A DNA stretch of 63,705 nucleotides, the filler included, from Collodictyon triciliatum (lineage: Eukaryota): assembly GCA_043381765.1 (NCBI GenBank). It is 4 parts of 4 records of this genome, joined end to end, with 100 filler letters (N's around TTAATTAATTAA, not from the genome) between each part and the next. Parts side by side here need not be neighbours in the genome. Positions count along the whole stretch, not along the records: positions 54,612 to 63,705 come from JBHJMP010001152.1; 3 more parts are not named here. One strand, given 5' to 3'. Below the pieces are notes generated by a model. That model made no database searches. It was not told where the DNA came from and saw only the letters and a list, made by a program, of their open reading frames with translations. Every line of letters starts with the position of its first letter. Positions within the stretch are counted from its first letter, which is position 1. Of the stretch, positions 18,427 to 63,705 are shown piece by piece. Made by a program: the position numbers and the translations under genes.

Positions 18427-21317
18427 ATGGTAAGCAACTTGATTCTAACCACCCTATTCCTAAGATGATGTTGGCATGTGACAAGCCCATGGAGGGAGAG
18501 AACAAGAAAGAATAACAAACGTAACGACAGCTGGCGTCAGCGTTGTAATCCAGTATTCCCCTGAGCCGCCATGACCAATCCTTCTTACTCTATTCTACTC
18601 CTTATGAGAGCACCTCCCCCATTCTACTTTCATATACAGAGAAAAGGACAACACCAATAACAAAAGAGACCAAACACTCAACAAGATTTATTGTAGAAAG
18701 AAATACAAGCTCCCTCTTTTTTTTCCCTTTCATGAAAAGCCACCCACAACGAACGCTTCTTTTTCTAACCCCTTATCTATTCCTCTCTCTCTCTCGTAAC
18801 TCTGCACAGGTCAACTTCACCATCGATGAACTGCGCTCCATCATGGACCGCCAACACAACATCCGTAACATGTCTGTGATTGCCCACGTGGACCACGGCA
18901 AGTCCACCCTGACAGACTCGCTTGTCGCTGCGGCCGGTATTATTGCCATCCACCAGGCCGGAGACACCCGCATCATGGACACCCGCAAGGACGAGCAGGA
19001 GCGCGGTATTACGATCAAGTCGACCGGGATCTCTCTGTACTTCAGCTTGCCCGAGGAGGTGCCTCTGCCCGTGGAGGCCAACGGCCGCGAGTTTCTGATC
19101 AATCTGATCGACTCGCCCGGACACGTGGACTTTTCGTCCGAGGTGACAGCCGCGCTGCGCGTGACCGACGGAGCCCTTGTCGTGGTGGACTGCGTGGAAG
19201 GCGTGAGCGTGCAGACGGAGACTGTGCTTCGCCAGGCCCTTGGCGAGCGCATTGTGCCAGTGCTGACGATCAACAAGCTGGACCGAGCCTTCCTGGAGCT
19301 GAAGCTGGACCACGAGATCATGTACCAGAACTTTACGCGCGTGATCGAGTCGGCCAACGTGATCATCTCGACATACCGCGACGAGACGATGGGGGATCTG
19401 CAGGTGTACCCCGAGAAGGGCACGGTTGCGTTTTCGGCCGGACTGCACGGGTGGGCGTTTACGCTGAACCGGTTTGCGCGCATGTACGCGTCCAAGTTTG
19501 GCGTGGATCAAGAGAAGATGCGTCAGCGCCTGTGGGGCGACTCGTACTTTGACCGGGAGGCCAAGGCGTGGGTCAAGACCGGGGGCAAGTCGCTGAAGCG
19601 TGCGTTCTGCCAGTTTGTGCTGGACCCGATCCAGAAGATCTTTGACGCGACGATGAACGAGCAGATGGACGCGCTGGACAAGATGCTGACTGCGCTGAAC
19701 ATCAAGCTGCTGGCGGAGGACCGGGACCTGCGGGGCAAGCAGCTGATGAAGCGCGTGATGCAGAAGTGGCTGCCGGCGGCGGACGCGCTGCTGGAGATGA
19801 TGGTGCTGAACCTGCCGTCGCCGGCCAAGGCGCAGCGCTACCGCGTGGACGCGCTGTACGACGGCCCGCTGGACGACGCGGCGGCCACGGCGATCCGCAA
19901 CTGCGACCCGAACGGCCCGCTGGTGATGTACGTGTCCAAGATGGTGCCGACAAGCGACAACTCGCGCTTCTTTGCGTTTGGGCGCGTGTTCTCGGGGACG
20001 ATCCGCACGGGCAACAAGGTGCGCATCTACGGGCCCAACTACCAGCCGGGCAAGAAGGACGACCTGTTTGTCAAGCCGATCCAGCGCACGGTGCTGATGA
20101 TGGGGCGCCGCACCGAGACGGTCGAGTCTGTGCCGTGCGGCAACACGGTGGGGCTGGTGGGCATCGACCAGTTCCTGGCCAAGGCCGGCACGCTGACGGA
20201 CCTGGACTCTGCGCACCCGATCAAGAGCATGAAGTACTCGGTGTCGCCGGTCGTGCGCGTGGCCGTGGACGTCAAGAACCCTGCGGATCTGCCCAAGCTG
20301 GTGGAGGGGCTGAAGCGGCTGTCCAAGTCGGACCCGCTGGTGCAGTGCTCGATCGAGGAGACGGGCGAGCACATTGTGGCCGGGGCGGGCGAGCTGCATC
20401 TCGAGATCTGCCTCAAGGATCTGGAGGAGGACTTTATGGCCGGCGCCCAGCTCATCAAGTCGGACCCCGTCGTCTCGTTCCGCGAGACCGTCAACGCCAC
20501 GTCGGGCATGGACGTGCTGTCCAAGTCGCCCAACAAGCACAACCGCCTCTACTGCAAGGCCGAGCCGCTGCCCGAGGGCCTGTCCGAGGAGATCGAGGCG
20601 GGCAAGGTCACTGCGCGCGACGACCCCAAGACCCGCGGCCGCTACCTGGCCGACACCTTCGGCATGGACGTCGGCGATGCCCGCAAGATCTGGTGCTTCG
20701 GCCCCGAGGGCACCGGCCCCAACATCGTCATCGACGCCACAAAGGCCGTCCAGTACCTGTCCGAGATCAAGGACTCGGTCGTCGCCGGCTTCCAGTGGGT
20801 CACCAAGGAGGGCGTCCTGTGCGAGGAGAACATGCGCGGCGTCCGCTTCAACATCCTCGACGTCGTCCTGCACGCCGACGCCATCCACCGCGGCGGAGGC
20901 CAGATCATCCCCACCGCCCGCCGCGTCTTCTACGGCGCCGCCCTCACCGCAGAGCCGCGCCTCATGGAGCCCATCTACCTCGTCGAGATCCAGTGCCCCG
21001 AGCAGGCCGTCGGCGGCGTCTACTCGGTCCTCAATCGCAAGCGCGGCCAGGTTGTCGAGGAGAACCAGCGCGCAGGCACCCCCATCTACAACATCAAGGC
21101 CTACCTCCCCGTCACAGAGTCCTTCGGCTTCACCTCCGAGCTGCGTGCCCAGACCTCCGGCCAGGCCTTCCCCCAGTGCGTCTTTGACCACTGGTCCGTC
21201 GTCCAGGGCTCCCCGCTCGAGCCCGGAAAGATTGCCGACCAGGTTGCCGCCATCCGCAAGCGCAAGGGCCTCAAGGACGGCATCCCCGACCTCGACAACT
21301 TTGTCGACAAGCTCTAA
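18427..21317 (+). CDS. EEF2: Eukaryotic translation elongation factor 2 (exon 1 is ATG only; intron 18430-18809)
   Basis: ATG|GTAAGC...GCACAG|GTCAAC gives [10 protein letters not shown]...[37 protein letters not shown], the diphthamide loop [11 protein letters not shown] and [12 protein letters not shown]. Confidence 0.99.
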
Positions 21318-51020: not shown

Positions 51021-51389
51021 GGTTTTGGGTCGCGCGCGCTCTTTTGATATATGAAGTGCTTAAGGGATTGGTATTGCTTTTATTAGGTACATGGAGATCT
51101 AAATCGTTTATTTTTTTTCATAGAGAGGCCTCAAAAATACAATTTTATTGTTTTTAGTAAAGATTTAATTTTTTTTGGAAACTAATCAGACCGAAATAAT
51201 TTTTTTTCTTTATTCGATTCAAGACATCGTAGGAAAAGATCATGCACTCTCTGTTAAATTGCATTCCGAGGTAAAAAAAATAGTCAAATATTCAAAGGAC
51301 AGCGTTGAAGGCAAGTCTACTTATTATTTTCAAGATCTTTTTTTTTTGTCGTTGCTCTTCGATCTCGGTTGGTTAATTCAAACATCCAT

Positions 51390-54258
51390 GGACTTCAGTG
51401 AGACCATGCGCGGTTTTGGCGACATTCAGATTCGTACAGGGTCAAAATTGCATCGAGAAACGAAACCTCCCAGTCGATATTTTGTTGTGGACATACCACG
51501 GTCAAAAAGTGCGATTGAGAACGAAATATCCAGAGATGAAGAAGGATTTCTCCGACGTCGGAGCAAGAAATGGCCTATTCTCTTTTTCTCAAACCGTATT
51601 AATATGCGCAAGCAACTGCATGTTGTAAAGAAATCGAGAAACCGCTACGAAAAAAAAAACGTGACACTTATGGTGGACAACCCTGCCATCAAACTCAGGA
51701 TCTCCTTCCCAAGAAAAGAAAACGCAGCCGCCTTCATTAAAGAGGAGACCTTTCCATCACCTCAATCACCATTACACCCCCATGCCAGCCAAAACTGTCA
51801 CAAATGATGCGCATCTGTCTAACATACCGCTGAGGGTCAGCTGGACTGATATTTTTAAGGGCCTGTAGTGAATACTTCACCCCAATCAAAGTCAACCGGT
51901 CAAAGCCTGGTGGGATATGCATGAATGATACACTCGTTACTTTTGACGAAGAACAAGAAAAATGGGGAAAATACATACCTTTGTCGTCATTCATGGTAGA
52001 CGCTATCGCATGGAGATATACGCTCTCAAAAAGTCTGAAATCCCATCAAATCTTTCCAAAAAATAAGAGAATAATACACAAGGTCGAACCATACAAAAAA
52101 AACAAAAAAAAAACTACTGTCAAGCCGATCACCAAAAAAACAGGTGACCACCAACAAAACGCCACCACTAACTTTTTTTTGCTTCAATACAAAAGAAGCC
52201 GACTTTGGCGCTGAAGACTGGCCAAGCGTGCAGGAATCGTCTGTTAAAAACAAATTCAGAGCCTAACAACAATGCCAAAGGCAACACGCGTCGTCTTCTA
52301 ATACCAGAAGGAGAAATCGTGGCAAGACATCCACGGATGAAGTGCTCCAAGTCTCAATCAAGAAAATGGTTCAGGGAACGGCCCCAAAATCAAGAAATGG
52401 ATATCGAAATGATGGACGAATCACCAGGAAATTTGCCTGAAAGTGCTTCATCAAGTTCTTCAATTAACATGGAGGAAGCAGTAGAAATCGTGGAATGGCT
52501 TCAAGGAAGAATTGGAGGAAACATCGCTAACCTCAAAGATTTCCAACCTCCTCAAGCCGATGATATCTCACCAAACTCTCCTTTAAATCATGGAGAGGAC
52601 TCCGAGGAAAGGGAAACCCAAGCAAACTCGGTAACAGAATCGAGAAACACCATAATGGAACCCAGCAAACCACATCCACTAACCTCCTTAGAGGTTATGG
52701 CTCCTGGAACCACCCAAGAGACTCCTTCTTCAGCAGGTGCTGTGCAATCCATAAGAAGCGACGTCTCAGACTCGGGATTGGATTAACAACAGTCCATCCA
52801 ACCTGTCGTCGTCATAGAAGATTCTGCCGAAGAAGAAAGTGAGTATCTTGAAGGTTCCGGAACGACGAATTACTCCTCAAGTACTGTTTGTGAAAACACT
52901 CCGACTGTCGAAACTCTTGCGACTCTTCAGCGAGAAACACCTTCCAAAAAAAAAAGAAGGAACGTAGACGAATATAAAACACTGGTTACTCATCCTGAAA
53001 TCACTGGCGCACCAAAAAAAAGACGGAAACTGTCGAAGATAAAGCCTCGCCCGATGAAAAGAGAATGAATCAGTCAAGTACACCACCGAAGGTAGCGAGC
53101 CAGAAAGCAAATCAGAATGAAAGTGGAAACATGGGTGGCCCTGCCTACTGCGTGGATGAAGGAGAAGAATTGGAAATGAGGGTTGCCGATCACCACCAGA
53201 GTGTATCTCCCAACACGCCAGCTACAAAGGGGATGCAGCCAAAAGACCAAGATCATCCGAAAAATCCTGGCCGAACCGCGAGCAATTATAACACCGGCCA
53301 AATGAAAGATAACTGGAGTAAACCATCCCACTCTGAGTTACCCAGCTCCAGCAGAGAGGGCCAATCACCGAATAATGCAGCCTCCAAAAGGCAATAGACT
53401 AACCATGTGTTTTAACTTTCTGTCGTGGAACATTAGGGGGATTAACAACCCCAAAAAAAGAAAAGAGGCCCTGAACACTGCTCTTTTCTATCATGCAGAC
53501 ATCATTTGCCTCCAAGAAACATGGCCCAGCCATGATAATCTAACAACAATGAAATATGGAAACGTCCACAAACGTGATCCTGTGACGATAATCAGCAGAG
53601 ACATGCAGGTTTAGCGATTCTATGCAAGAAATGCATAGCCAAACTCAATCCTCGCTTCAGAGAGATTATTCTTGGCCGCTGAGTAAGTCTCTATATCCAA
53701 TTTGACGGAGCTGACACTCGTATAATGACGACATACATGTCGCTCCAAACAGCAGGTTCAAATACTAGAATACATGAGTATGTGCTTGTCTCTAAGGAGA
53801 TGGATATTGCGAAACGTATCATCATCTGTGGAGACTTCGACGCTCTTATTGACACCAGCACCGAGTGGTCTGGGTCTTCGACACGCAATGATAAATCTTT
53901 CGTCGACTGGACAATCATGCAAAAGCTGAAAGACCACTAAAACACGCTCAATACTCACTCTCGAGGAGTGACGTGTAGAAGACATACAAAAAGCGGCTTC
54001 ATGTGGAACAGAATCGACCGCTTCCTCTGCTCAAGGGACTTGCATGCATGGTTCAAGAAACTTAAAACAGTCTATTCTGCGCTGTCCTACCACAGTGCTA
54101 TCCTGGCTAACATCGATTCAGCCGGTGGCTGTGAATGGCAGGCGAGGTATATAGACTGGAGGGAATACAACAACTCCAAGTCAATAGATGACATACAAAA
54201 CAAGCTCAAAACTTACTTCAACACCACAGGTGATGCATTAATTGAAGCGGAATGGCCT
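51390..54258 (+). mobile_element. Decayed L1/Tx1-like non-LTR retrotransposon: ORF1 plus AP-endonuclease of ORF2, 3' truncated
   Basis: APE motifs LSWNIRGIN, DIICLQET, IICGDFDA, RIDRFL and SYHSAI; upstream ORF1 is homologous to 2550-4090; frameshifts and stops. Confidence 0.88.
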
Positions 54259-54511
54259 TTAATTTTTTTCTTTTCAACAGTTTATTGAGAGAAAACAAAG
54301 TTGAGGAAACCGCCTTCGCCTCTTGGACAAAAATGAGCTGTGGACAAGACAGTGGAAACCCCCGGATTGTGTGGTTGGAGGTTTTGTGTTTTGGATGGAA
54401 AAAAAAGAAAAGAAAAAAAAAAGAAAAAGACAAGATAGAGAGGAGAGAAGGTGTTCTCACATGCAGACTATTCTACCCGAGGTGGTTCAAATCCAATGCG
54501 CGGTTTCTGGT

Positions 54512-54611
54512 NNNNNNNNNNNNNNNNNNNNNNNNNNNNNNNNNNNNNNNNNNNNTTAATTAATTAANNNNNNNNNNNNNNNNNNNNNNNNNNNNNNNNN
54601 NNNNNNNNNNN
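54512..54611. other. Artificial scaffold-joining spacer
   Basis: 44N-TTAATTAATTAA-44N. Confidence 0.95.
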
Positions 54612-56346: not shown

Positions 56347-56651
56347 ACGCTGCAAACAAACTAAAGAAAAGAAAAGAAAAGAAAAACCATTTTATACATT
56401 AAAAAAAAAAAAACGACAAGAATCTTACAGAGTGTACATATCTAAAGATTTCTTTGTACAATTCATTATTTTTTTTAACAATTTTTAATATTTTTATTTC
56501 TGATTTTCAGTTTAGTTTCCTGGGATTAAGATGGCATGCATGTCTGGGGGTTACCTCAGCGCCTATTCCTAAAAATGATTTTTATTATTACTATTATTAT
56601 AGGCTTTCGTCAAATGGTTTGGTGTCAAAAGTTTATGATACAAATCGATTA

Positions 56652-59600
56652 TTAATTCTCATGAGTGACGTGTGGATACCGGTTCTTTGTTGCCTCTTTT
56701 TTTTTTATATCGGGGAGCTTTGGTGGGGTGTTATTGGTAGGAGGTCTCCTTGTGTCTCTTTGTAGGGTATTGGTGCTGCCAGGGCCTGAGCGCGTAATGT
56801 CAGGAAGATTTGTACTCGTGTCGCTAGAGCGGGAGGGTGATTCAGTACTCGTATTTTGGGGTGTTTGCAAAAGTGACGGAAGAGCAGAGGCTGACGGTTT
56901 TGATTGAACAACCGCAACAAATGAATCCGCTCGGATTTTGTCATGAATAACATTAAGTGCCTTTTCTATATCAAATATGCCAGCGTGATATCTTTCCTCG
57001 CACCAACATTCCTTAACGTTTAATAGTGTTTCTCCATACAGTCTCAATGCGACAATTTTTTCAAGTAGAGAAATATAGTCAGCATCTCCCTTTTTTTTTA
57101 TAAAGGTATGTAATTGATGTAATGTCAATTCAGATGCCTTAGATTTATCTCTTTGCGCAAAAACACCTTCCAAACTTTGTTCCGATAATGCTGCCAGTTT
57201 AAGGGACTCATCTTGGCTAATGTAGTAGTAATCTTTCATTCTTGCTGGGTTCATTCTATCAGCTACCCCTGTGTATTTTTCCCAACTTTCTCCCGCAATA
57301 ATCTCACTTAGTTTAGTACATCCACTTTCAAATAAAAACTCCACAAACTCTCCACGGTACATCGATGTAAGTTTGGTGAATCTCATCGGAAGTAGCCCAA
57401 GAATTTGATGCTCGGGTATTTTATATTCACTATCCTTATAAAACGTAAGATACCTCAACACTAATGACAAATCTGGTCGAAATTTGTAGTTCTGTCTCCA
57501 GCAAACTTTCAATAGCCTTTTCAATTCCTCTGGTACTTGCGAGGGGACCTCGGGTCTCAACCCGTTGCTGCTGGGTGACTCCCCAAGAAATCCTGGGAAA
57601 GGCTCAGTACCAGAAAACATGTACCACAACAGTAAGCCAAAGGCGTACACGTTACTGGGCTCTCCCCGGTGACCCTGATTAACACCTTCTTCTCCATAGA
57701 CACTCACATCTTCATAATAAGGCTCACTAACTACATCGTGTATTTCTGGCGCTTGCCAGTTCTTCGTACCGTTACGATTTAATTCCCCAAACCGTGTAGG
57801 TAGGTTAGAGCCGACCTTTTCAGCCCCACGATAACTTACCAGACCGAAATCGACAATTTTTGCCACATCCCCAACAACCATAATATTGTCAGACTTTAAA
57901 TCCTCATGATAAATACTTTTTGAATGCATAAATAGTAGACCCTGGCATATTTGAACAGAGTATTGAACAATTGTTGGTACTGAAAGCTTCCTTTCCTTTA
58001 CCCCCTCCATTAACCTCTTCAGAGAAACACCAGCATTTTCCATTATCATGTAAAAATCATTTTCGATCCGGCTTACGCAAAAAAGTTTCACAATATTTCT
58101 ACATTCTGCGCACTCATACAGGAGCTTGCTCTCTGAAATCATCGATAATATAACTTCTTCGATGGAAAAATTACCAGTCTGTTGAATGGTCTGAATTTTC
58201 ACAACAACATCTGTCCCTTGATAATATGTCCTATACACCCTTCCGAATGCTCCTTTGGCAACATATTCGACAAGCTCTATGCGATCATCCGTCCAAATAT
58301 GCCTCAACTCCATATCAATAGACTGAAGACATAGAGAGGTATGTGTCTTTTTCTTTATGTGATTTTGACGCACAATATTCTGGTTCGTTTTTGGAATGCC
58401 TGTTTAATATCAAATTGAATACATTAGCAAAGCTACACGAAAAATAGATTGATGGGAGACAAAGAAAAAATAATATAAAAAATAATTACCTGCTTCTAAA
58501 AAAATTTGTCCCTGCTTTACTTTTACAAAATCCAACGTGTGATGTCTGGTGCACAGAGCCGGTTCAGGTTGAGATTGCAAACTTGACAAAGATAGCACCC
58601 CATCCATTTTTTTTCTGCGACACTCATAACATGTTGATTGATATGAACGAATAAGATTTGGCCGAATAGACATGATAATTCTGTTGAAATAGCACAATAT
58701 ATCCCAGAGGTCAATTGATTTTTCAGCCCCCGAAGCACTTGATCGAATAGAAATGCTGATGATATTGAAATGTGTATGTATTAGTATTTTTAAATCATCA
58801 CCTGGAATCATTCTCAGCACGTTACTCGATTCATTTCTCTCTACAGTTAGGTGAATTTTAGCGACATTTGTAAAAAAACTGTTCTCGTACTGAACTCCTA
58901 AAGGTGCGCCCATTGTGAGATGAAGAGCTTGAACAATTATAGCACTCTTGTCAGATACCGTCAATTCTTTTTCTGTAATCATGTCAATTGAGAGTTCAGA
59001 TATGCAGTTCGACTCTGCCTTTTCATTCCATATGGCCTTCAAATTTTGACACTCTTCCATCAAGGAAGGGAATGCAATGCATTCTTGGTTAAAGTAAATA
59101 CCAAGTCCAAAATGTTCAAATATTATTAGTATAACCTTGAATATATTTTCTTCAATGGTAAACCCCAGTTCTGCATTTATCTTTTGTTTGAGCTTAGACA
59201 CCAATATCACTCCTGTCGAATCTCTTCCAACACCTCTGAAACTGAAAACGCACTTGAATATATTAATTAAAAATAGTGGGTCTAAAAAGACAGTTGACCT
59301 CATGGACTCCACGGATGAATACCAAATGATGGAGCCTAGGTCATGCAAAAACTTCAAGGCACTTTTGCACTGACTTTCATCCATTCGAAGTGATTTCACG
59401 GCAAAGTCAATAATGCTGGTAAGACTGTCGTACTTGCTTGTTTTCCCTTTGTAGTCTATATATTCTTTCAAACGGACATACTGCCTGGGGACATCTTTGT
59501 TTATATTTTCCAACTGCATCATTCCTTGAAAAATAGCCTCTTTTAAATCGGATATACCTTTTCCTGTCTTATTGCTGATTCGCAGTTTTGAATCAATAAA

Positions 59601-62600
59601 TTTGTGAAATTTATTTGACTTTGTAATTTTTTCGATTTCTCTTTTCATCTCCTCACTACATTTTGTAATTATGCTATCGAGATGAGTTCCAACGATAATT
59701 ATCCTTGAACCGGGGGAGAAGTCATCCAACATTTTAATCCACCGACGAATGTTGTTTTTTTCTTTATCATAATCAAGTCGATACAATATTAAAACGAGAG
59801 CTCCTGCGGACAAGAAGAAAGGATGCGTCACCTGAAATTCATCTTGTCCACCAAAATCCCATATTTTGATGGATATACATTCTCCTGACTCTGCCAAAGA
59901 GAAGTCATTTATGTCAACATGAGCTATTCCATCAGTTTTTTCTCTTTTCTCTTCAACAGTACTCTTAAAGAACGAAGTTTTTTGCATAATTGACTTTGTC
60001 AGTGTGGTTTTTCCTGCTTCACCTTCACCGAGTAATAATATTCGTCCCTGAGTCCATTTAACGAATCCATTTATGGAGCTAAGAAGGAAATCAAATACAG
60101 CCTCTGGCCCTTGCTTAACCACAGCCTGAGGGACGTTTTTTATTGGATTTCCGTGAATAAAAAGTCCACTTCTCAGCCCCTTAATCGAACCGATAATGAT
60201 TGGGATGCTGGTAATCTTTGTTAAAAAAATCCATTATGAAAACATGTTCAAAAATAATGAGAAATCATAGCTTTAATATAGTTCATTTTTACGTTGTTGT
60301 TGGATAGATTTAGCAATCTAAGATTTCGAAGGTCAGCAATTATTTCGGGTACTTCAGATATCTACTCATTAAAAAAAAAATACTTTCAGTAAAATTCTAC
60401 TTTAGAAATTCAAAAAAATAAAAGAGTTTTTCTCGCGCATTAAATAGACCTGGTTGTTGGAAACATCCAATTCTTCGATCCATGTCATGTTAAAAATTGG
60501 AGTGTATATGTTTTTTATCTGGAGATGAAAATCAATAAGAATGATGAGGTTGATAACAATAGTATGAATGAGGAGAATGAGATTAATTTTGGGTTTATAA
60601 AGGAGTTTAATGGAATTTGGAAATTGAGGATACAATACAATTGTAGATAATGATTTCAAAACAGGAACTAAGAAATGTTGAATATTAGATAGAACAGTAA
60701 TATTTCAATATCCCACATTTGTAGATTCCATAATCAAACTTTTGAGGTGAACTAGTTCTGTGAGAATGCATGGGAAATTGGATATCTGTTAAACTTTTTG
60801 TTAAGCAATGTTGATTTGTCCCGAGAAAATCTCAAATAGAGTTTAATGCTAAAAAAAATAAGAGTATAAAAATACTGGATTGTTTGAAATATTTAAGGAA
60901 TTAATCCATCTCATCTGAGAAAACCATGTTGGGAAATCTGTAATCTGCATATTTTTTTTATCGTTAGGCAGTATGGTTTTTGCACGATTTTTTTGAATCA
61001 ATTTAAATATATAGTTACGAAATATTTCTTTCTTATGTAAGATTTTTATAATCTAATAATAAAACTCTGGTTGATTTTATTATCATTATAAATATTCTAA
61101 TTCTTATTACTATTACTAATATTATTGTAAAGTGGAGATACCATATTATTTGATATATCTATTCTCCAAGGGCTTTCAGGCAGTAGAGATATCTCTGCTG
61201 GTATTTCTTGAATATCCATACCTTTGCATCTTATTTCATTGTTTAAATAATCAACTGAATCATATATCTTTTGTTGCGAAGGAGATAGATTATTGTGATG
61301 AATATCGAATTTCTTGAGTTTCTTTGCTTCTCTCAGACTGGGAATCCTTGATAACTTCAAAAAGAAAATCATCGACTTAGTTTAAATCGATATTAATAAT
61401 GAATAACATTCTAAAAATGGAATTTTATAGATTTCTTGATGTATTTTATAAGAATATACTGATTTTTTAAAGAAAACCTTGTTATTGTACATTTCGATAA
61501 TTTCGATGTTATTTAGATGAAGGATAAAATCCGGAAACTCTGATATCTGAAATATATAAAACATAAATAGAATATATCAAATGAAAGGAAAAAGACGATC
61601 TAGTTTATTTCATATGAGAAATATGAACATACATGACATTCATTGGCAGCGATGAATTTCAAGTTTGTCAAATGTGAGAATGAATCAGGGATTGATGATA
61701 TCTATTTGAGATAAAAGACTCTGATAATATTTCTTAATTACATCCTTTTCTTAAAAATGAAATTATTATTTTATGATTTATTACATTTAGAAATGATATG
61801 TTAATCGATTCTAGTTGTCTTAGGAGGCTTATCCAATGTGGGAGTCCCTGAATCTATCAACAATGTGAAATTGAGATGAATTGTGTAATTAAAGCTTTTT
61901 TTATTCTTCCTTTCAACTTTTGTGCAGGACCGATGTAATTAAAGCTTTTAATTTACTCGGGCCACTCACTGGACATGATCTCAAGTGAAGAACTCTTAGC
62001 CTGGTCATTTTCTTCATTTTGTCAGGTAAGGCTGATATCTAGAAGACGACAAATAATATATAAAAACGTGATGAAACGCCGGCAGCACTTGTTTTAAGTT
62101 ATAATACCTTATTCCCAGAAAAATTGATTGCTTGTAAAGTCGAAAGCCCGTGAAACCAATCAGGAATGACAGATATCTGATATATAATTCTTTAGATGTT
62201 TTTATTACTTTTATTTATGGACATATATATATATATATATATTCCTATGAATAAAATGTAAATCATGCTTGGCAAGAATCCAAATCCAGTGATTTTAGTT
62301 TGATTAAGCTCTTGATTTTCTCAGGAATGGTTGAAATCTATGTAATAGGATATTAATATCACTTCTTTTTTTTAAAACAATTTGATAGATAGTAATTTAA
62401 ATTACCGGATTTTTCTTAAGTACAAGACTTTCTGTCGATTTCATTTCGAATAGCCAATCCGGTAAGGTGTTGATCTAAATGAAGAGTAAAAGTTGGAAAA
62501 AGGCTGATACGAAGAAATTATGAATTGGAAGGTAGAATTTACTCTGTTCGAAGAAAAGTCGATTAACTTCGGGTTCATTGGCAGCAGTGAAAGCTCTGGA

Positions 62601-63659
62601 GGTAGAACTTGGATGGACTTTCCAGAGAAAATAAGTTGTGAACTGCTCAAGCTGGTCGAATCCAAAAAATCTTGTATTATTCCAGGAAATTGGTTGCGCT
62701 GAAGTGTCAGCATTTTTAAGCTTGTCATGTCCCTCATGTTGGGAATGGAAGTGATCTGCCAGAAATAAATGTTCGAGACAACTATCAATCTTACTGAGAT
62801 AAAAAAAATCATTTGTTTCGTATGTGCAATTAATATACAGACCATATTGTCCGAGAAGTCCATGTGCTCTAGACTCATCAATTGACTGATCCATTCAGGT
62901 ACAAAGCTTAACTACAGAAAAAAAGTTTTTCTATCGATTTAAATATTCTTTTTTTAAAAAAATTCTTATAAATTATTCAAGATGGTGAAGATAAATTTTA
63001 ACATTTTTTTCTATTGTTGAATAAAAAGAAGAAATTATGTAAAAAAAAAAAGAACGTATTAGAAACATAAATAATGAGAAAATAAATAAATTTTGAAAAG
63101 GAATAAATCAAAATCAAAATTGGAATTAAAAGTTAAAGAGACAAGAAATAAATGGCCTCAGTTCGATGAAAATAATTTACATTACAATGGCTGACATTCA
63201 ACGACTTTAGCATCGTTAACTCGGACATTTTTTCTGGCAACTCACGTATCTATTATACTATTATTAGGACTCGGTGTAATTCCATATTTAACAATATTTA
63301 TACCATATTTTTGGATAGGTTGATTGATTCCAAGGCTTGCAAATCACAAAACCATCCCGGAATTTCTGAAATCTAAAGGAGAGGTGTATAAATTTTCTTT
63401 TTTAAAAAATTATAAAGCTCAAATAACGGTATACTGTATCATTCACCTCATTCAACGACAAATCAAGCTTCCATGGTCTATTTGGTAAAAAGCCTATTTC
63501 TTCGGGTATGGTTGTAGTTTTTAGCCCAGAATAATTTATCTCGTTGGTTTTTAAGTCGAAGGATTCCATAAGCCTCTGTATGTCCACTGAAAAATTGTTT
63601 TGTCCCAAATTGAGAAAAGTAAGATTCGTCATAACTCTCATGTTTGCAATTGTGCTGAG
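56652..63659 (-). CDS. ROCO protein: LRR array, Roc GTPase, COR, protein kinase, SAM-like tail; 5' end beyond the window
   Basis: 17 phase-0 LRR exons; exon 60215-58490 with GEGEAGKTT, TDGI, WDFGGQ, VGTHLD, ISNKTG and COR; exon 58399-56652 with KGAFGRVY, VVVK, HEDLKSDN, DFG and WQAPE. Confidence 0.93.
61896..61933 (-). mobile_element. Ultra-short retroposed insert with a 12-16 bp TSD in a ROCO intron
   Basis: Same core motif, flanked by TGTAATTAAAGC(TTTT) starting at 61884 and 61934. Confidence 0.75.
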
Positions 63660-63705
63660 CTAATTAAAGATAATGTAAATCAATCAATCAATCAATCAAT
63701 CAATC

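Follow-up and report, generated by a model that had tools for sequence, protein, structure and literature searches.

The window (the whole 63.7-kb stretch of DNA that was analysed) carries, on its minus strand, an expressed ROCO gene of a collodictyonid protist of the CRuMs group, in which LRRs, a Roc GTPase, COR and a protein kinase follow one another in one polypeptide. The LRRs are encoded by an array of small exons, all of them in phase 0. Probably this is an old duplicated array in an intracellular ROCO signalling protein of the LRR-Roc-COR-TKL-type kinase layout, the exon copies of which have diverged and are now spliced constitutively.

The host was placed by means of the EF2 gene within the same window, which is 92% identical to EF2 of Diphylleia rotans and thus points to a collodictyonid, a lineage unrelated to brown algae, as had been stated in the initial annotation. 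The 5′ end of the gene lies beyond the window and the visible LRR array is therefore a lower bound. Since one contig (X1 record 2) runs 100 nt upstream past the first visible exon, E1, additional 5′ exons are located outside the window. After splicing, 1,687 codons can be read without a stop across LRR, Roc, COR and kinase. A search of the entire window with Rfam gave no matches.

The LRR array consists of frame-symmetric 69-nt and 213-nt exons

All 17 proposed LRR exons are stop-free and in phase 0 when translated at their coordinates; 14 of them are 69 nt long and three are 213 nt long (Table 1). Each is preceded by an acceptor AG, and the donor is GT after 16 exons and GC after one (62269-62337). 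The coordinates, sizes and phase given in the initial annotation were thus confirmed, and its order of exons, [213+3x69][213+7x69][213+4x69], is correct. The alternation of P.W and P.K modules that it described is strict only in modules E2-E4 and E6-E10 and is not strict elsewhere; position 7 of the module is W in 6/14 modules and K in 3/14.

The exon pattern is IxxLPxxLxxLxxLxxLxLSxNx, with the exon starting at the I/L of IxxLP. Fourteen exons hold a single repeat each, and the three 213-nt exons hold, by eye, about three repeat-like units each. Together with one repeat in the Roc exon, the LRR solenoid comprises at least 24 repeats by eye. The 17 complete introns of the array are all phase 0 and lie at the same point within the repeat; on the assumption that roughly one intron in two is phase 0, a run of 18 such introns would have a probability of about 4e-6. 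Exons of this kind, with one repeat each and all in phase 0, would be the footprint of units of exon plus intron having been duplicated in tandem long ago, in part perhaps as pairs of exons of types A and B (P.W...S.N and P.K...S.C). Since then the copies would have diverged.

Table 1. Exons of the ROCO gene in the window, in the direction of transcription
Feature	Position	Strand	Evidence
LRR exon E1, 213 nt, 71 aa, 3 LRR-like units by eye; first visible; AG upstream	63447..63659	-	translation, contig joint 63372/63447
LRR exon E2, 69 nt, P.W type	63304..63372	-	translation/splice signals, contigs, module HMM
LRR exon E3, 69 nt, P.K type ending S.C	63181..63249	-	translation/splice signals, contigs, module HMM
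LRR exon E4, 69 nt, P.W type	62843..62911	-	translation/splice signals, contigs, module HMM
LRR exon E5, 213 nt, long module	62543..62755	-	translation/splice signals, contigs, long-module comparison
LRR exon E6, 69 nt	62406..62474	-	translation/splice signals, contigs, module HMM
LRR exon E7, 69 nt, then sole GC donor	62269..62337	-	translation, contig joint with ends CT..GC on + strand
LRR exon E8, 69 nt	62108..62176	-	translation/splice signals, contigs, module HMM
LRR exon E9, 69 nt	61970..62038	-	translation/splice signals, module HMM; joints by X2 record 6 arithmetic
LRR exon E10, 69 nt	61785..61853	-	translation/splice signals, module HMM; X2 record 6 arithmetic
LRR exon E11, 69 nt	61633..61701	-	translation/splice signals, module HMM; X2 record 6 arithmetic
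LRR exon E12, 69 nt	61478..61546	-	translation, contig joint 61354/61478, module HMM
LRR exon E13, 213 nt, long module	61142..61354	-	translation/splice signals, contigs, long-module comparison
LRR exon E14, 69 nt	60876..60944	-	translation/splice signals, contigs, module HMM
LRR exon E15, 69 nt	60717..60785	-	translation/splice signals, contigs, module HMM
LRR exon E16, 69 nt	60450..60518	-	translation/splice signals, contigs, module HMM
LRR exon E17, 69 nt	60293..60361	-	translation/splice signals, contigs, module HMM
Large exon, 1726 nt: last LRR, LRR-to-Roc linker, Roc GTPase, COR	58490..60215	-	Pfam, contigs, motifs, structure matches
Large exon, 1720 nt: TKL-like protein kinase and ~250 aa C-terminal region	56680..58399	-	Pfam, contigs, motifs, structure matches
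Terminal exon start: last four codons, stop codon; 3′ UTR continues below	56555..56568	-	contigs leave at 56679

Assembled transcripts join the LRR exons in genomic order

Transcript evidence came from assembled contigs of two public runs of one study, X1 and X2, whose label as RNA is a guess; a third run of the same study, X3, had no contigs placed on the window. Nineteen joints were found in total, of which 14 canonical and one non-canonical are listed, and all 14 canonical joints fall exactly on the proposed exon edges, including the one with the GC donor. In X2 record 6, a contig of 1651 nt spanning 60088-63555, the listed pieces are separated by 2x69, 7x69 and 4x69 nt. As this length arithmetic requires all seven middle exons, we take the four unlisted joints to be the remaining joints between neighbours. 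From inside E1 to the Roc exon, the contig includes every exon spanned, in genomic order.

No exon-skipping joint occurs among the joints listed for the X1/X2 contigs, assembly being a step that drops rare variants. The initial annotation had proposed a combinatorially variable array, with junctions as a check for exon skipping; the contigs of both runs instead keep every covered exon, and this check returned only constitutive joints between neighbours, in assembled contigs to which rare isoforms are invisible. Its statement that modules can be skipped or swapped without a frameshift holds as arithmetic from the phase-0 symmetry. Frame symmetry alone is no proof of shuffling or of cassette splicing.

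Roc and kinase motifs are intact and no membrane anchor is visible

The assignment to the ROCO family was borne out by Pfam, which recognized Roc (8.3e-21, residues 64-186 of the exon product) and COR-A (9.2e-11, residues 249-377), both above the curated cut-off, and Pkinase in the product of the kinase exon (3.9e-31). Pattern searches of the translation found the Roc motifs G1, G3 and G4 intact (GEGEAGKT P-loop, DFGGQ and THLD) and the kinase motifs VVVK, HEDLKSDN, DFG and APE present. The nearest solved structures of Roc-COR are those of prokaryotic Roco proteins (4wnr, 2e-22; 6hlu and 3dpu), with the LRR-to-Roc linker within the alignment; solved LRRK2 and LRRK1 were matched at about 2e-15 and about 2e-14, respectively. 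For the kinase, the nearest solved structures are MLK4, MLK1 and RIPK1, all of the TKL group.

Roc-COR and the kinase do occupy one large exon each, as had been noted, and a small terminal exon, missed in that description, is additionally present. It is separated from the kinase exon by a 111-nt GT-AG intron at 56569-56679, its first codon shares two bases with the kinase exon, and the loose letters of the contigs past 56679 match the window near 56540-56568. No Pfam family was matched by the 254 aa that follow the kinase (best bPH_9, E 0.15). An Atlas feature search of the same 254 aa gave a weak EF-hand-like lead (score 0.91-0.92), with 117-127 shared features versus 170 typical of true members.

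The protein had also been described as receptor-like, a label that we do not retain. The LRRs adjoin Roc directly with no transmembrane segment between them, and no credible transmembrane segment was found in the 1,687 visible residues, the 5′ end being outside the window. In a 19-residue hydropathy scan the only segment to reach 1.6 is within COR. A cell-surface LRR receptor-like kinase is not supported either, as the visible residues contain no transmembrane helix between the LRRs and the kinase, although a signal peptide or membrane anchor could lie in the N-terminal part upstream. If the protein is a sensor, then it is an intracellular one.

The characterised ROCO proteins LRRK2, Dictyostelium Roco4 and Chlorobaculum Roco served as models for a possible mechanism. 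By analogy with them, GTP binding and hydrolysis by Roc, coupled via COR dimerisation, would control the kinase, and the LRR solenoid would be a cytosolic protein-binding, possibly autoinhibitory, arm.

The closest relatives are ROCO transcripts of Diphylleia rotans

An exhaustive search of representative sequences with Roc-COR gave 7,832 matches at E <= 0.001 and 18 at E <= 1e-30, among them no orthologue or self match, the best identity being 40%. The closest sequences found are ROCO transcripts of D. rotans in EukProt EP00002 (P0003, P0004, P0005, P0242-P0246, P0248 and P0250), the six best representatives of which show 32-40% identity over Roc-COR, with E down to 4e-68. None exceeds 40% identity, and none is an orthologue of the gene. 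At least 10 distinct ROCO clusters are present in D. rotans, differing in the number and order of modules and in output domains, which are DUF4062 with AAA_16 (STAND-like NTPase), PH, or none. No kinase family was found in the 6/10 D. rotans ROCOs that were rescanned with Pfam, or in those of the others that precomputed Pfam lists cover.

The D. rotans proteins carry the same 23-aa LRR modules, and P0005 also has a long 71-aa module of the same layout (18.1 bits, E 3e-7). This suggests that the grammar of long and short modules is older than the gene. Isoforms of D. rotans assembled by Trinity showed no internal indel of an LRR module in 10 pairs and one four-isoform set; they differ by a 49-aa insert resembling intron retention or at their N- or C-terminal ends.

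Metagenomes were scanned as well. The Roc-COR exon gave 99 pattern matches, none of which was confirmed, and an alignment of 10 sequences of the family retrieved 510 relatives. The best 80 of these loci (L001-L080) are all at <=29% identity and are presumed to be prokaryote-like Roco genes; the scan yielded no collodictyonid genomic paralogue.

Old duplication probably accounts better for the array than shuffling, exon skipping or decay

That the gene has decayed into a pseudogene, or that chance in AT-rich DNA produced the pattern, is extremely improbable. Transcripts of the X1/X2 strain do contain an extra T in the T9 run at 57090, shortening the window's open reading frame by about 145 codons through an early stop, and a base change at 56993 that would create TGA in the window's frame. 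However, the frameshift at 57090 lies in a homopolymer, is missing from the window and is confined to the tail after the kinase domain. Moreover, the frame is open throughout, the catalytic motifs are intact and two samples show transcription of the gene with correct splicing. Diversity at the transcript level, with LRR cassettes alternatively skipped as in DSCAM or the Ectocarpus ROCOs and many variants made from one gene, would be permitted by the frame-neutral cassettes, and LRR exons of Ectocarpus ROCO genes are reported to be alternatively spliced (PMC11378527). We nevertheless consider it very unlikely here, given that the canonical joints listed all link neighbours, that the sole non-canonical joint falls within COR and resembles a match to a paralogue, and that no D. 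rotans isoform examined differs by an LRR module.

More weight is due to exon shuffling in evolution, in which ROCO paralogues acquire, lose and swap phase-0 cassettes, giving diversified, immune-like intracellular LRR sensors convergent with those of brown algae; we still regard it as unlikely. Symmetric cassettes would leave the reading frame intact after any such event, and there is a documented brown-algal precedent (PMC3341825 and PMC11378527). The varied number and order of the same 23-aa and long modules among the D. rotans clusters resembles a family gaining and losing modules and was counted against the reading of an old array, and the DUF4062 and AAA_16/STAND-like or PH modules of some D. 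rotans ROCOs also favour shuffling. So does the divergence between strains: the LRR pieces of X1 record 2 have 18 differences from the window in ~709 nt, as compared with 30 in ~3,446 nt of Roc-COR-kinase, and this roughly 2-3-fold excess, which would fit faster LRR evolution, was likewise counted against the reading of an old array with constitutive splicing. On the other hand, the itemised strain differences in LRR exons, 3 nonsynonymous and 4 synonymous, reveal no nonsynonymous excess in a sample (n=7) too small for dN/dS. The signs of shuffling described for Ectocarpus in PMC3341825 are exon identity, intron similarity and intronic LRR relics; LRR-only reservoir loci are a further trace of this kind in the brown-algal genes. 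Here, the 69-nt exons share 28-62% of their DNA sequence pairwise (mean 43%) and the 213-nt exons 46-49%; exon-intron units share only matches of 18-29 nt, which fall on conserved exon starts or on stretches rich in A/T, and a search of the gene gave no intronic LRR relics. A check for orphan 69-nt LRR exons, which had been suggested at the outset, was run over the window with the module HMM and found none (best match outside the training set 9.4 bits, E 0.18). Neither the gene nor the window thus contains near-identical exons, intron repeats or extra LRR exons as traces of recent shuffling.

A broader form of the shuffling idea, to which we give a similarly low probability, would be that collodictyonids, deep-branching predatory flagellates near the base of Amorphea, independently built a repertoire of ROCO-based intracellular LRR sensors from frame-neutral 69-nt/213-nt cassettes that paralogues acquire, lose and swap and that are perhaps rarely skipped, with a kinase as output in this gene and STAND-type NTPases or PH in the D. 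rotans paralogues. If true, the idea of an exon-shuffled immune receptor, proposed for brown-algal ROCOs, would gain a second case that arose by convergence. An old duplicated array, constitutively spliced, remains our preferred explanation.

Comparison with brown-algal ROCOs, LRRKs and other repeat-per-exon genes

Interest in ROCO proteins stems mainly from LRRK2 and its link to Parkinson's disease. The present gene shares with LRRK2/LRRK1 and the Dictyostelium Roco kinases the LRR-Roc-COR-kinase order, a TKL-like kinase and intact catalytic motifs, but identity to LRRK-type proteins in a search among long proteins is only ~22-25%. No WD40 follows the kinase, unlike in metazoan LRRK1/2, and the ANK/ARM repeats of LRRKs are not visible, the N-terminus being outside the window. 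A search of long proteins with the kinase exon at a cut-off of E 1e-20, probably too strict for that database size, found no match in 2,659 candidates. Orthology to metazoan LRRK1/2 was rejected on the missing WD40 and on the identity of the closest Roc-COR relatives, D. rotans ROCOs in which no kinase family was found. Since the nearest relatives of Roc-COR are those proteins and prokaryotic Roco, the kinase fusion may be independent of that in LRRK-type kinases.

The brown-algal LRR-ROCO genes cited as a precedent do exist in Ectocarpus and Saccharina (Zambounis et al. 2012, PMC3341825; Teng et al. 2024, PMC11378527). In both systems an N-terminal LRR array is encoded by single repeats in equal-sized, frame-symmetric exons, Roc-COR directly follows the LRRs, and the genes belong to a multi-gene family. 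However, the brown-algal exons are 72 nt long and in phase 2 (Teng et al.), as opposed to 69 nt (23 aa) and phase 0, and their pattern, GxxPxxLxxxxxLxxLxLxxNxLx, places the exon boundaries at an offset from those found here. Unlike the brown-algal arrays, the present one has a 213-nt triple unit every few exons; it shows no nucleotide similarity between exons, no intronic LRR relics and, in the contigs, no alternative LRR splicing. A kinase follows COR, whereas the brown-algal ROCOs are LRR-Roc-COR only, and CRuMs stand against stramenopiles as the host lineage. The differences in exon size, phase and boundary suggest that the two arrays are of independent origin and that one-repeat-per-exon arrays arise repeatedly by exon duplication. 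In the immune receptors proposed for brown algae, the LRR arms are the candidate surfaces for recognition, and the gene described here adds a second ROCO LRR array with one repeat per exon, verified by transcripts and from a supergroup that has hardly been studied. Literature searches turned up no report on collodictyonid ROCO or LRR genes, and the main text of the collodictyonid draft-genome paper has no occurrence of LRR, Roco or leucine-rich. The ROCO diversity of D. rotans makes collodictyonids useful for studying the diversification of LRR-NTPase sensors that preceded animals and fungi.

Ribonuclease inhibitor is another gene with one LRR per exon; its repeat-sized exons share a single phase, a layout usually taken as a sign of exon duplication, but their size and phase differ from those here and the protein is unrelated. 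The same holds for the gonadotropin receptors (cited in PMC11378527). They are membrane receptors with extracellular LRRs, unlike the protein described here.

The LRR exon array is real and is verified by transcripts

We read the minus strand over 60000-63705 and checked each of the 17 proposed LRR exons (E1 to E17, from 5' to 3') by script. All 17 translate without a stop from the first base and follow an AG; 16 are followed by GT and the remaining one by GC. Fourteen have a length of 69 nt (23 aa) and the other three of 213 nt (71 aa), in the order 213, 3 x 69; 213, 7 x 69; 213, 4 x 69. Exon count, sizes, phase and order are thus as the initial annotation had described them, and the transcript contigs agree. 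The 69-nt exons start with I/L-x-x-(I/L/F/V)-P and end with S-x-N/C-x, so that every intron falls at one repeat position, in phase 0. The array holds 17 complete introns of 54-269 nt (median about 88 nt over all 18 introns measured); their G+C content is 23.5%, that of the LRR exons 36% (36-39% across the exons of the gene). If about half of introns are assumed to be phase 0, the probability of 18 consecutive phase-0 introns is about 4e-6, thus the pattern is not due to chance. The phase-0 array is best read as the trace of tandem duplication of an exon-plus-intron unit. A partial A/B alternation (P.W...S.N versus P.K...S.C) in E2-E4 and E6-E10 suggests that duplication of a two-exon unit enlarged part of it.

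Transcript evidence came from three coded public sequencing runs of one study (X1, X2 and X3), labelled 'RNA? (a guess)' and kept as Logan contigs, of which 43, 28 and 0 pieces, respectively, were placed on 56600-63705. The contigs leave out exactly the predicted introns, with 14 canonical joints listed at the predicted coordinates, the GC donor among them. Record 6 of X2 (1651 nt, spanning 60088-63555) covers part of E1 and the other sixteen visible LRR exons, four of its joints resting on arithmetic: its listed pieces leave 138, 483 and 276 nt of the contig between them, that is 2 x 69, 7 x 69 and 4 x 69, so the spanned exons are all present and in genomic order. Record 2 of X1 extends 100 nt past E1, so the 5' end of the gene lies beyond the window edge. 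Divergence between contigs and window is about 0.9% over Roc-COR-kinase and about 2.5% over the LRRs; the contigs thus belong to a closely related strain or species rather than to the assembly.

Coordinates of the ROCO gene (minus strand) and of other features
Feature	Position	Remarks
First visible LRR exon, E1	63447-63659	213 nt
LRR exon with GC donor	62269-62337	69 nt
Last exon of the array, E17	60293-60361	69 nt
E9/E10 intron	61854-61969	core 61896-61932
LRR-Roc-COR exon	58490-60215	start at 60215 set by contigs
Odd joint in COR	59123/59237	within 59080-59264
COR/kinase intron	58400-58489	90 nt, GT-AG, phase 1 (contigs)
Kinase exon	56680-58399	
EF-hand-like lead	56994-57416 (-)	141 aa
3-nt deletion in contigs	57222	
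Added T, T9 run	57090	
TGA in the window's frame	56993	
Added T, T10 run	56696	
Terminal intron	56569-56679	111 nt, GT-AG (contigs)
EF2 gene	18819-21317 (+)	intronless
Endonuclease-like ORFs	~53300-54300 (+); 51169-53400	
Comparable ORF fragment	near 2955-3733 (-)	
Q/P/S/T-rich open frame	5403-8837 (-)	1,144 codons
N runs (assembly gaps)	12200-12850; 34450-35000; ~54520-54570	

The gene encodes a ROCO kinase with probably intracellular LRRs

The spliced reading frame is open over 1,687 codons. The first of the two large exons carries a further LRR and the linker from the LRRs to Roc, followed in the Pfam search by Roc (8.3e-21) and COR-A (9.2e-11); the second gave a protein kinase (3.9e-31). 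The P-loop, DFGGQ and THLD motifs of Roc and the VVVK, HEDLKSDN, DFG and APE motifs of the kinase were all found. Among solved structures, Roc-COR best matches prokaryotic Roco proteins (4wnr, 2e-22; 6hlu, 8r4b and 3dpu, about 1e-19), as against about 2e-15 for LRRK2 and 2e-14 for LRRK1, and the best matches of the kinase are MLK4, MLK1 and RIPK1, all of the TKL group. The protein had been called receptor-like. However, the LRRs join Roc directly and thus lie with the enzymes on one side of any membrane, and the visible residues contain no credible transmembrane segment (a single 19-residue hydropathy window reaches 1.6, within COR), therefore the term can mean an intracellular sensor at most.

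The 254 aa after the kinase gave no Pfam match; a helical-looking part of them gave a weak EF-hand-like lead in the Atlas (score 0.91-0.92, 117-127 shared features). In the contigs of both X1 and X2 this region carries an added T in each of two T runs, a 3-nt deletion and a change that would read TGA in the frame of the window. The T9 insertion ends the frame about 145 codons short of the window ORF end; either the post-kinase tail is truncated in the strain behind the contigs or one source contains a homopolymer error.

The gene belongs to a collodictyonid ROCO family

The EF2 encoded in the window shares a 90%-identity cluster with EF2 of Diphylleia rotans and is 92% identical to it on direct comparison (755/817 residues), versus 71-75% for the next named relatives. 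The source is thus a collodictyonid (CRuMs group) near the D. rotans of EukProt, not identical to it, and the gene had rightly been assigned to a protist lineage unrelated to brown algae. The G+C contrast between neighbouring genes is very strong, with about 55-61% in EF2 against the values given above for the ROCO gene; other parts of the window go down to 27-35%.

Relatives of Roc-COR were sought by a word-index search among long proteins and an exhaustive search of representatives. The latter gave 7,832 matches at E <= 0.001 and 18 at E <= 1e-30; neither search returned an orthologue or self match, the best matches being 32-40% identical. D. rotans transcripts made up 7/7 best matches and nine of the best 11, and form at least ten ROCO clusters (P0003, P0004, P0005, P0242-P0246, P0248 and P0250). 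Rescanning six of these ROCOs with Pfam showed DUF4062 plus AAA_16, PH or no further domain after LRR-Roc-COR, and a kinase in none (0/6). In P0242, P0243, P0003 and P0004, LRR-Roc-COR is joined to DUF4062 and an AAA_16/AAA_22 (STAND-like) NTPase region; P0244-P0246 and P0005 have a C-terminal PH-like domain instead. The output modules of collodictyonid ROCOs are thus unusually varied. The LRR regions of the D. rotans ROCOs contain 23-aa modules as in the window gene, and a 71-aa module of P0005 matches the 213-nt exons over their full length (18.1 bits, E 3e-7), so this long-and-short module grammar is a trait of the family. Literature searches gave no mention of collodictyonid ROCO or LRR genes, nor did a term search in the available main text of a preprint (2026) that describes draft genomes of collodictyonids.

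The LRR array is probably old and constitutively spliced

Exchange of LRR exons between paralogues across the ROCO family would agree with the number and order of LRR modules, which vary from one paralogue to another, and with the per-site divergence between window and contigs, which is higher in the LRR pieces than in the remainder of the gene. We nevertheless consider it unlikely. Pairwise DNA identity among the fourteen 69-nt exons does not exceed 62% (28-62%, mean 43%; protein 13-52%), and among the three 213-nt exons it is 46-49%. A repeat search returned 18-29-nt matches alone, at conserved exon starts or A/T-rich stretches, and no similarity between introns of the gene. An HMM built from the 14 modules and run on six frames of the window recovers those 14 by construction and nothing further above 9.4 bits (E 0.18): it detected neither relic exons in any of the three long introns nor, in 63.7 kb, any of the orphan 69-nt LRR exons whose search the initial annotation had suggested. 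The 36 itemised base differences between window and contigs divide, nonsynonymous to synonymous, into 3/4 in the LRR, 8/8 in Roc-COR and 11/2 in the kinase and tail; replacement changes in the LRR exons are not in excess, seven differences being far too few for a verdict.

As to alternative skipping of LRR exons, no joint between non-neighbouring exons occurs among those listed for the contigs of X1 and X2. The LRR exons are included constitutively in these transcripts, though rare isoforms could escape contigs. Among the D. rotans transcripts, what separates the four isoforms of P0004 is an in-frame insert of 49 aa, resembling a retained intron, together with differences at their 3' ends; another 10 isoform pairs differ solely at the N- or C-terminal ends, and none (0/10) has a module-sized internal indel. 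The proposed combinatorial receptor function thus gained no support from exon divergence, relics, transcripts or D. rotans isoforms. The gene is a new collodictyonid ROCO kinase whose array of one repeat per exon is best read as old and constitutively spliced.

One odd joint was seen, within COR, the sole one of its kind, with non-canonical ends, a 28-nt side and long loose ends. The contigs concerned, from both runs, match this COR stretch alone; their 'joint', 113 nt long and non-canonical, comes with loose ends of 255 nt. A paralogous ROCO gene of the same organism is the probable source of these transcripts.

The likeness to brown-algal ROCO genes is architectural

According to the available text of two studies (Zambounis et al. 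2012, PMC3341825; Teng et al. 2024, PMC11378527), nearly all brown-algal ROCO genes encode each LRR by a 72-nt exon (GxxPxxLxxxxxLxxLxLxxNxLx), in phase 2 per Teng et al. Their introns contain non-coding LRR relics, dot plots indicate recombination within and between genes, exon order is unconserved even in recent duplicates, several annotated splice variants differ in LRR content, and the proteins, of LRR-Roc-COR type, have no kinase (PMC3341825, PMC11378527). In contrast, the window gene has 69-nt phase-0 exons with an offset boundary (exons start IxxLP), an array punctuated by 213-nt triple units and a kinase after COR, and none of the recombination marks described there was found in it. 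Set against these accounts, it resembles the brown-algal genes in architecture only, and the two arrays most likely have independent origins.

Other features of the window

Within the E9/E10 intron lies a 34-nt insert with a terminal AATAAAA, bordered by perfect direct repeats of 15 nt (AAAGCTTTAATTACA). It resembles the tail of a retroposon severely truncated at its 5' end, with a target-site duplication. The 37-nt core piece occurs once in the window, and its summed contig depth is about 722 in X1 and 421 in X2, versus about 2-25 in other bins. Many of its contigs enter poly-T on one side and differing sequences on the other, thus it looks like the common 3' end of an abundant transcript or repeat family. 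By eye, the translations of ORFs elsewhere resemble the endonuclease part of a LINE-type retrotransposon, and a comparable fragment lies on the minus strand. Because of the N runs, some neighbouring gene models are incomplete. The Q/P/S/T-rich open frame contains a long tandem run of VQNP, VQTP and IQTP-like units and is flanked by long AAT/ATT-type microsatellites, translating to poly-N, poly-I or poly-L.
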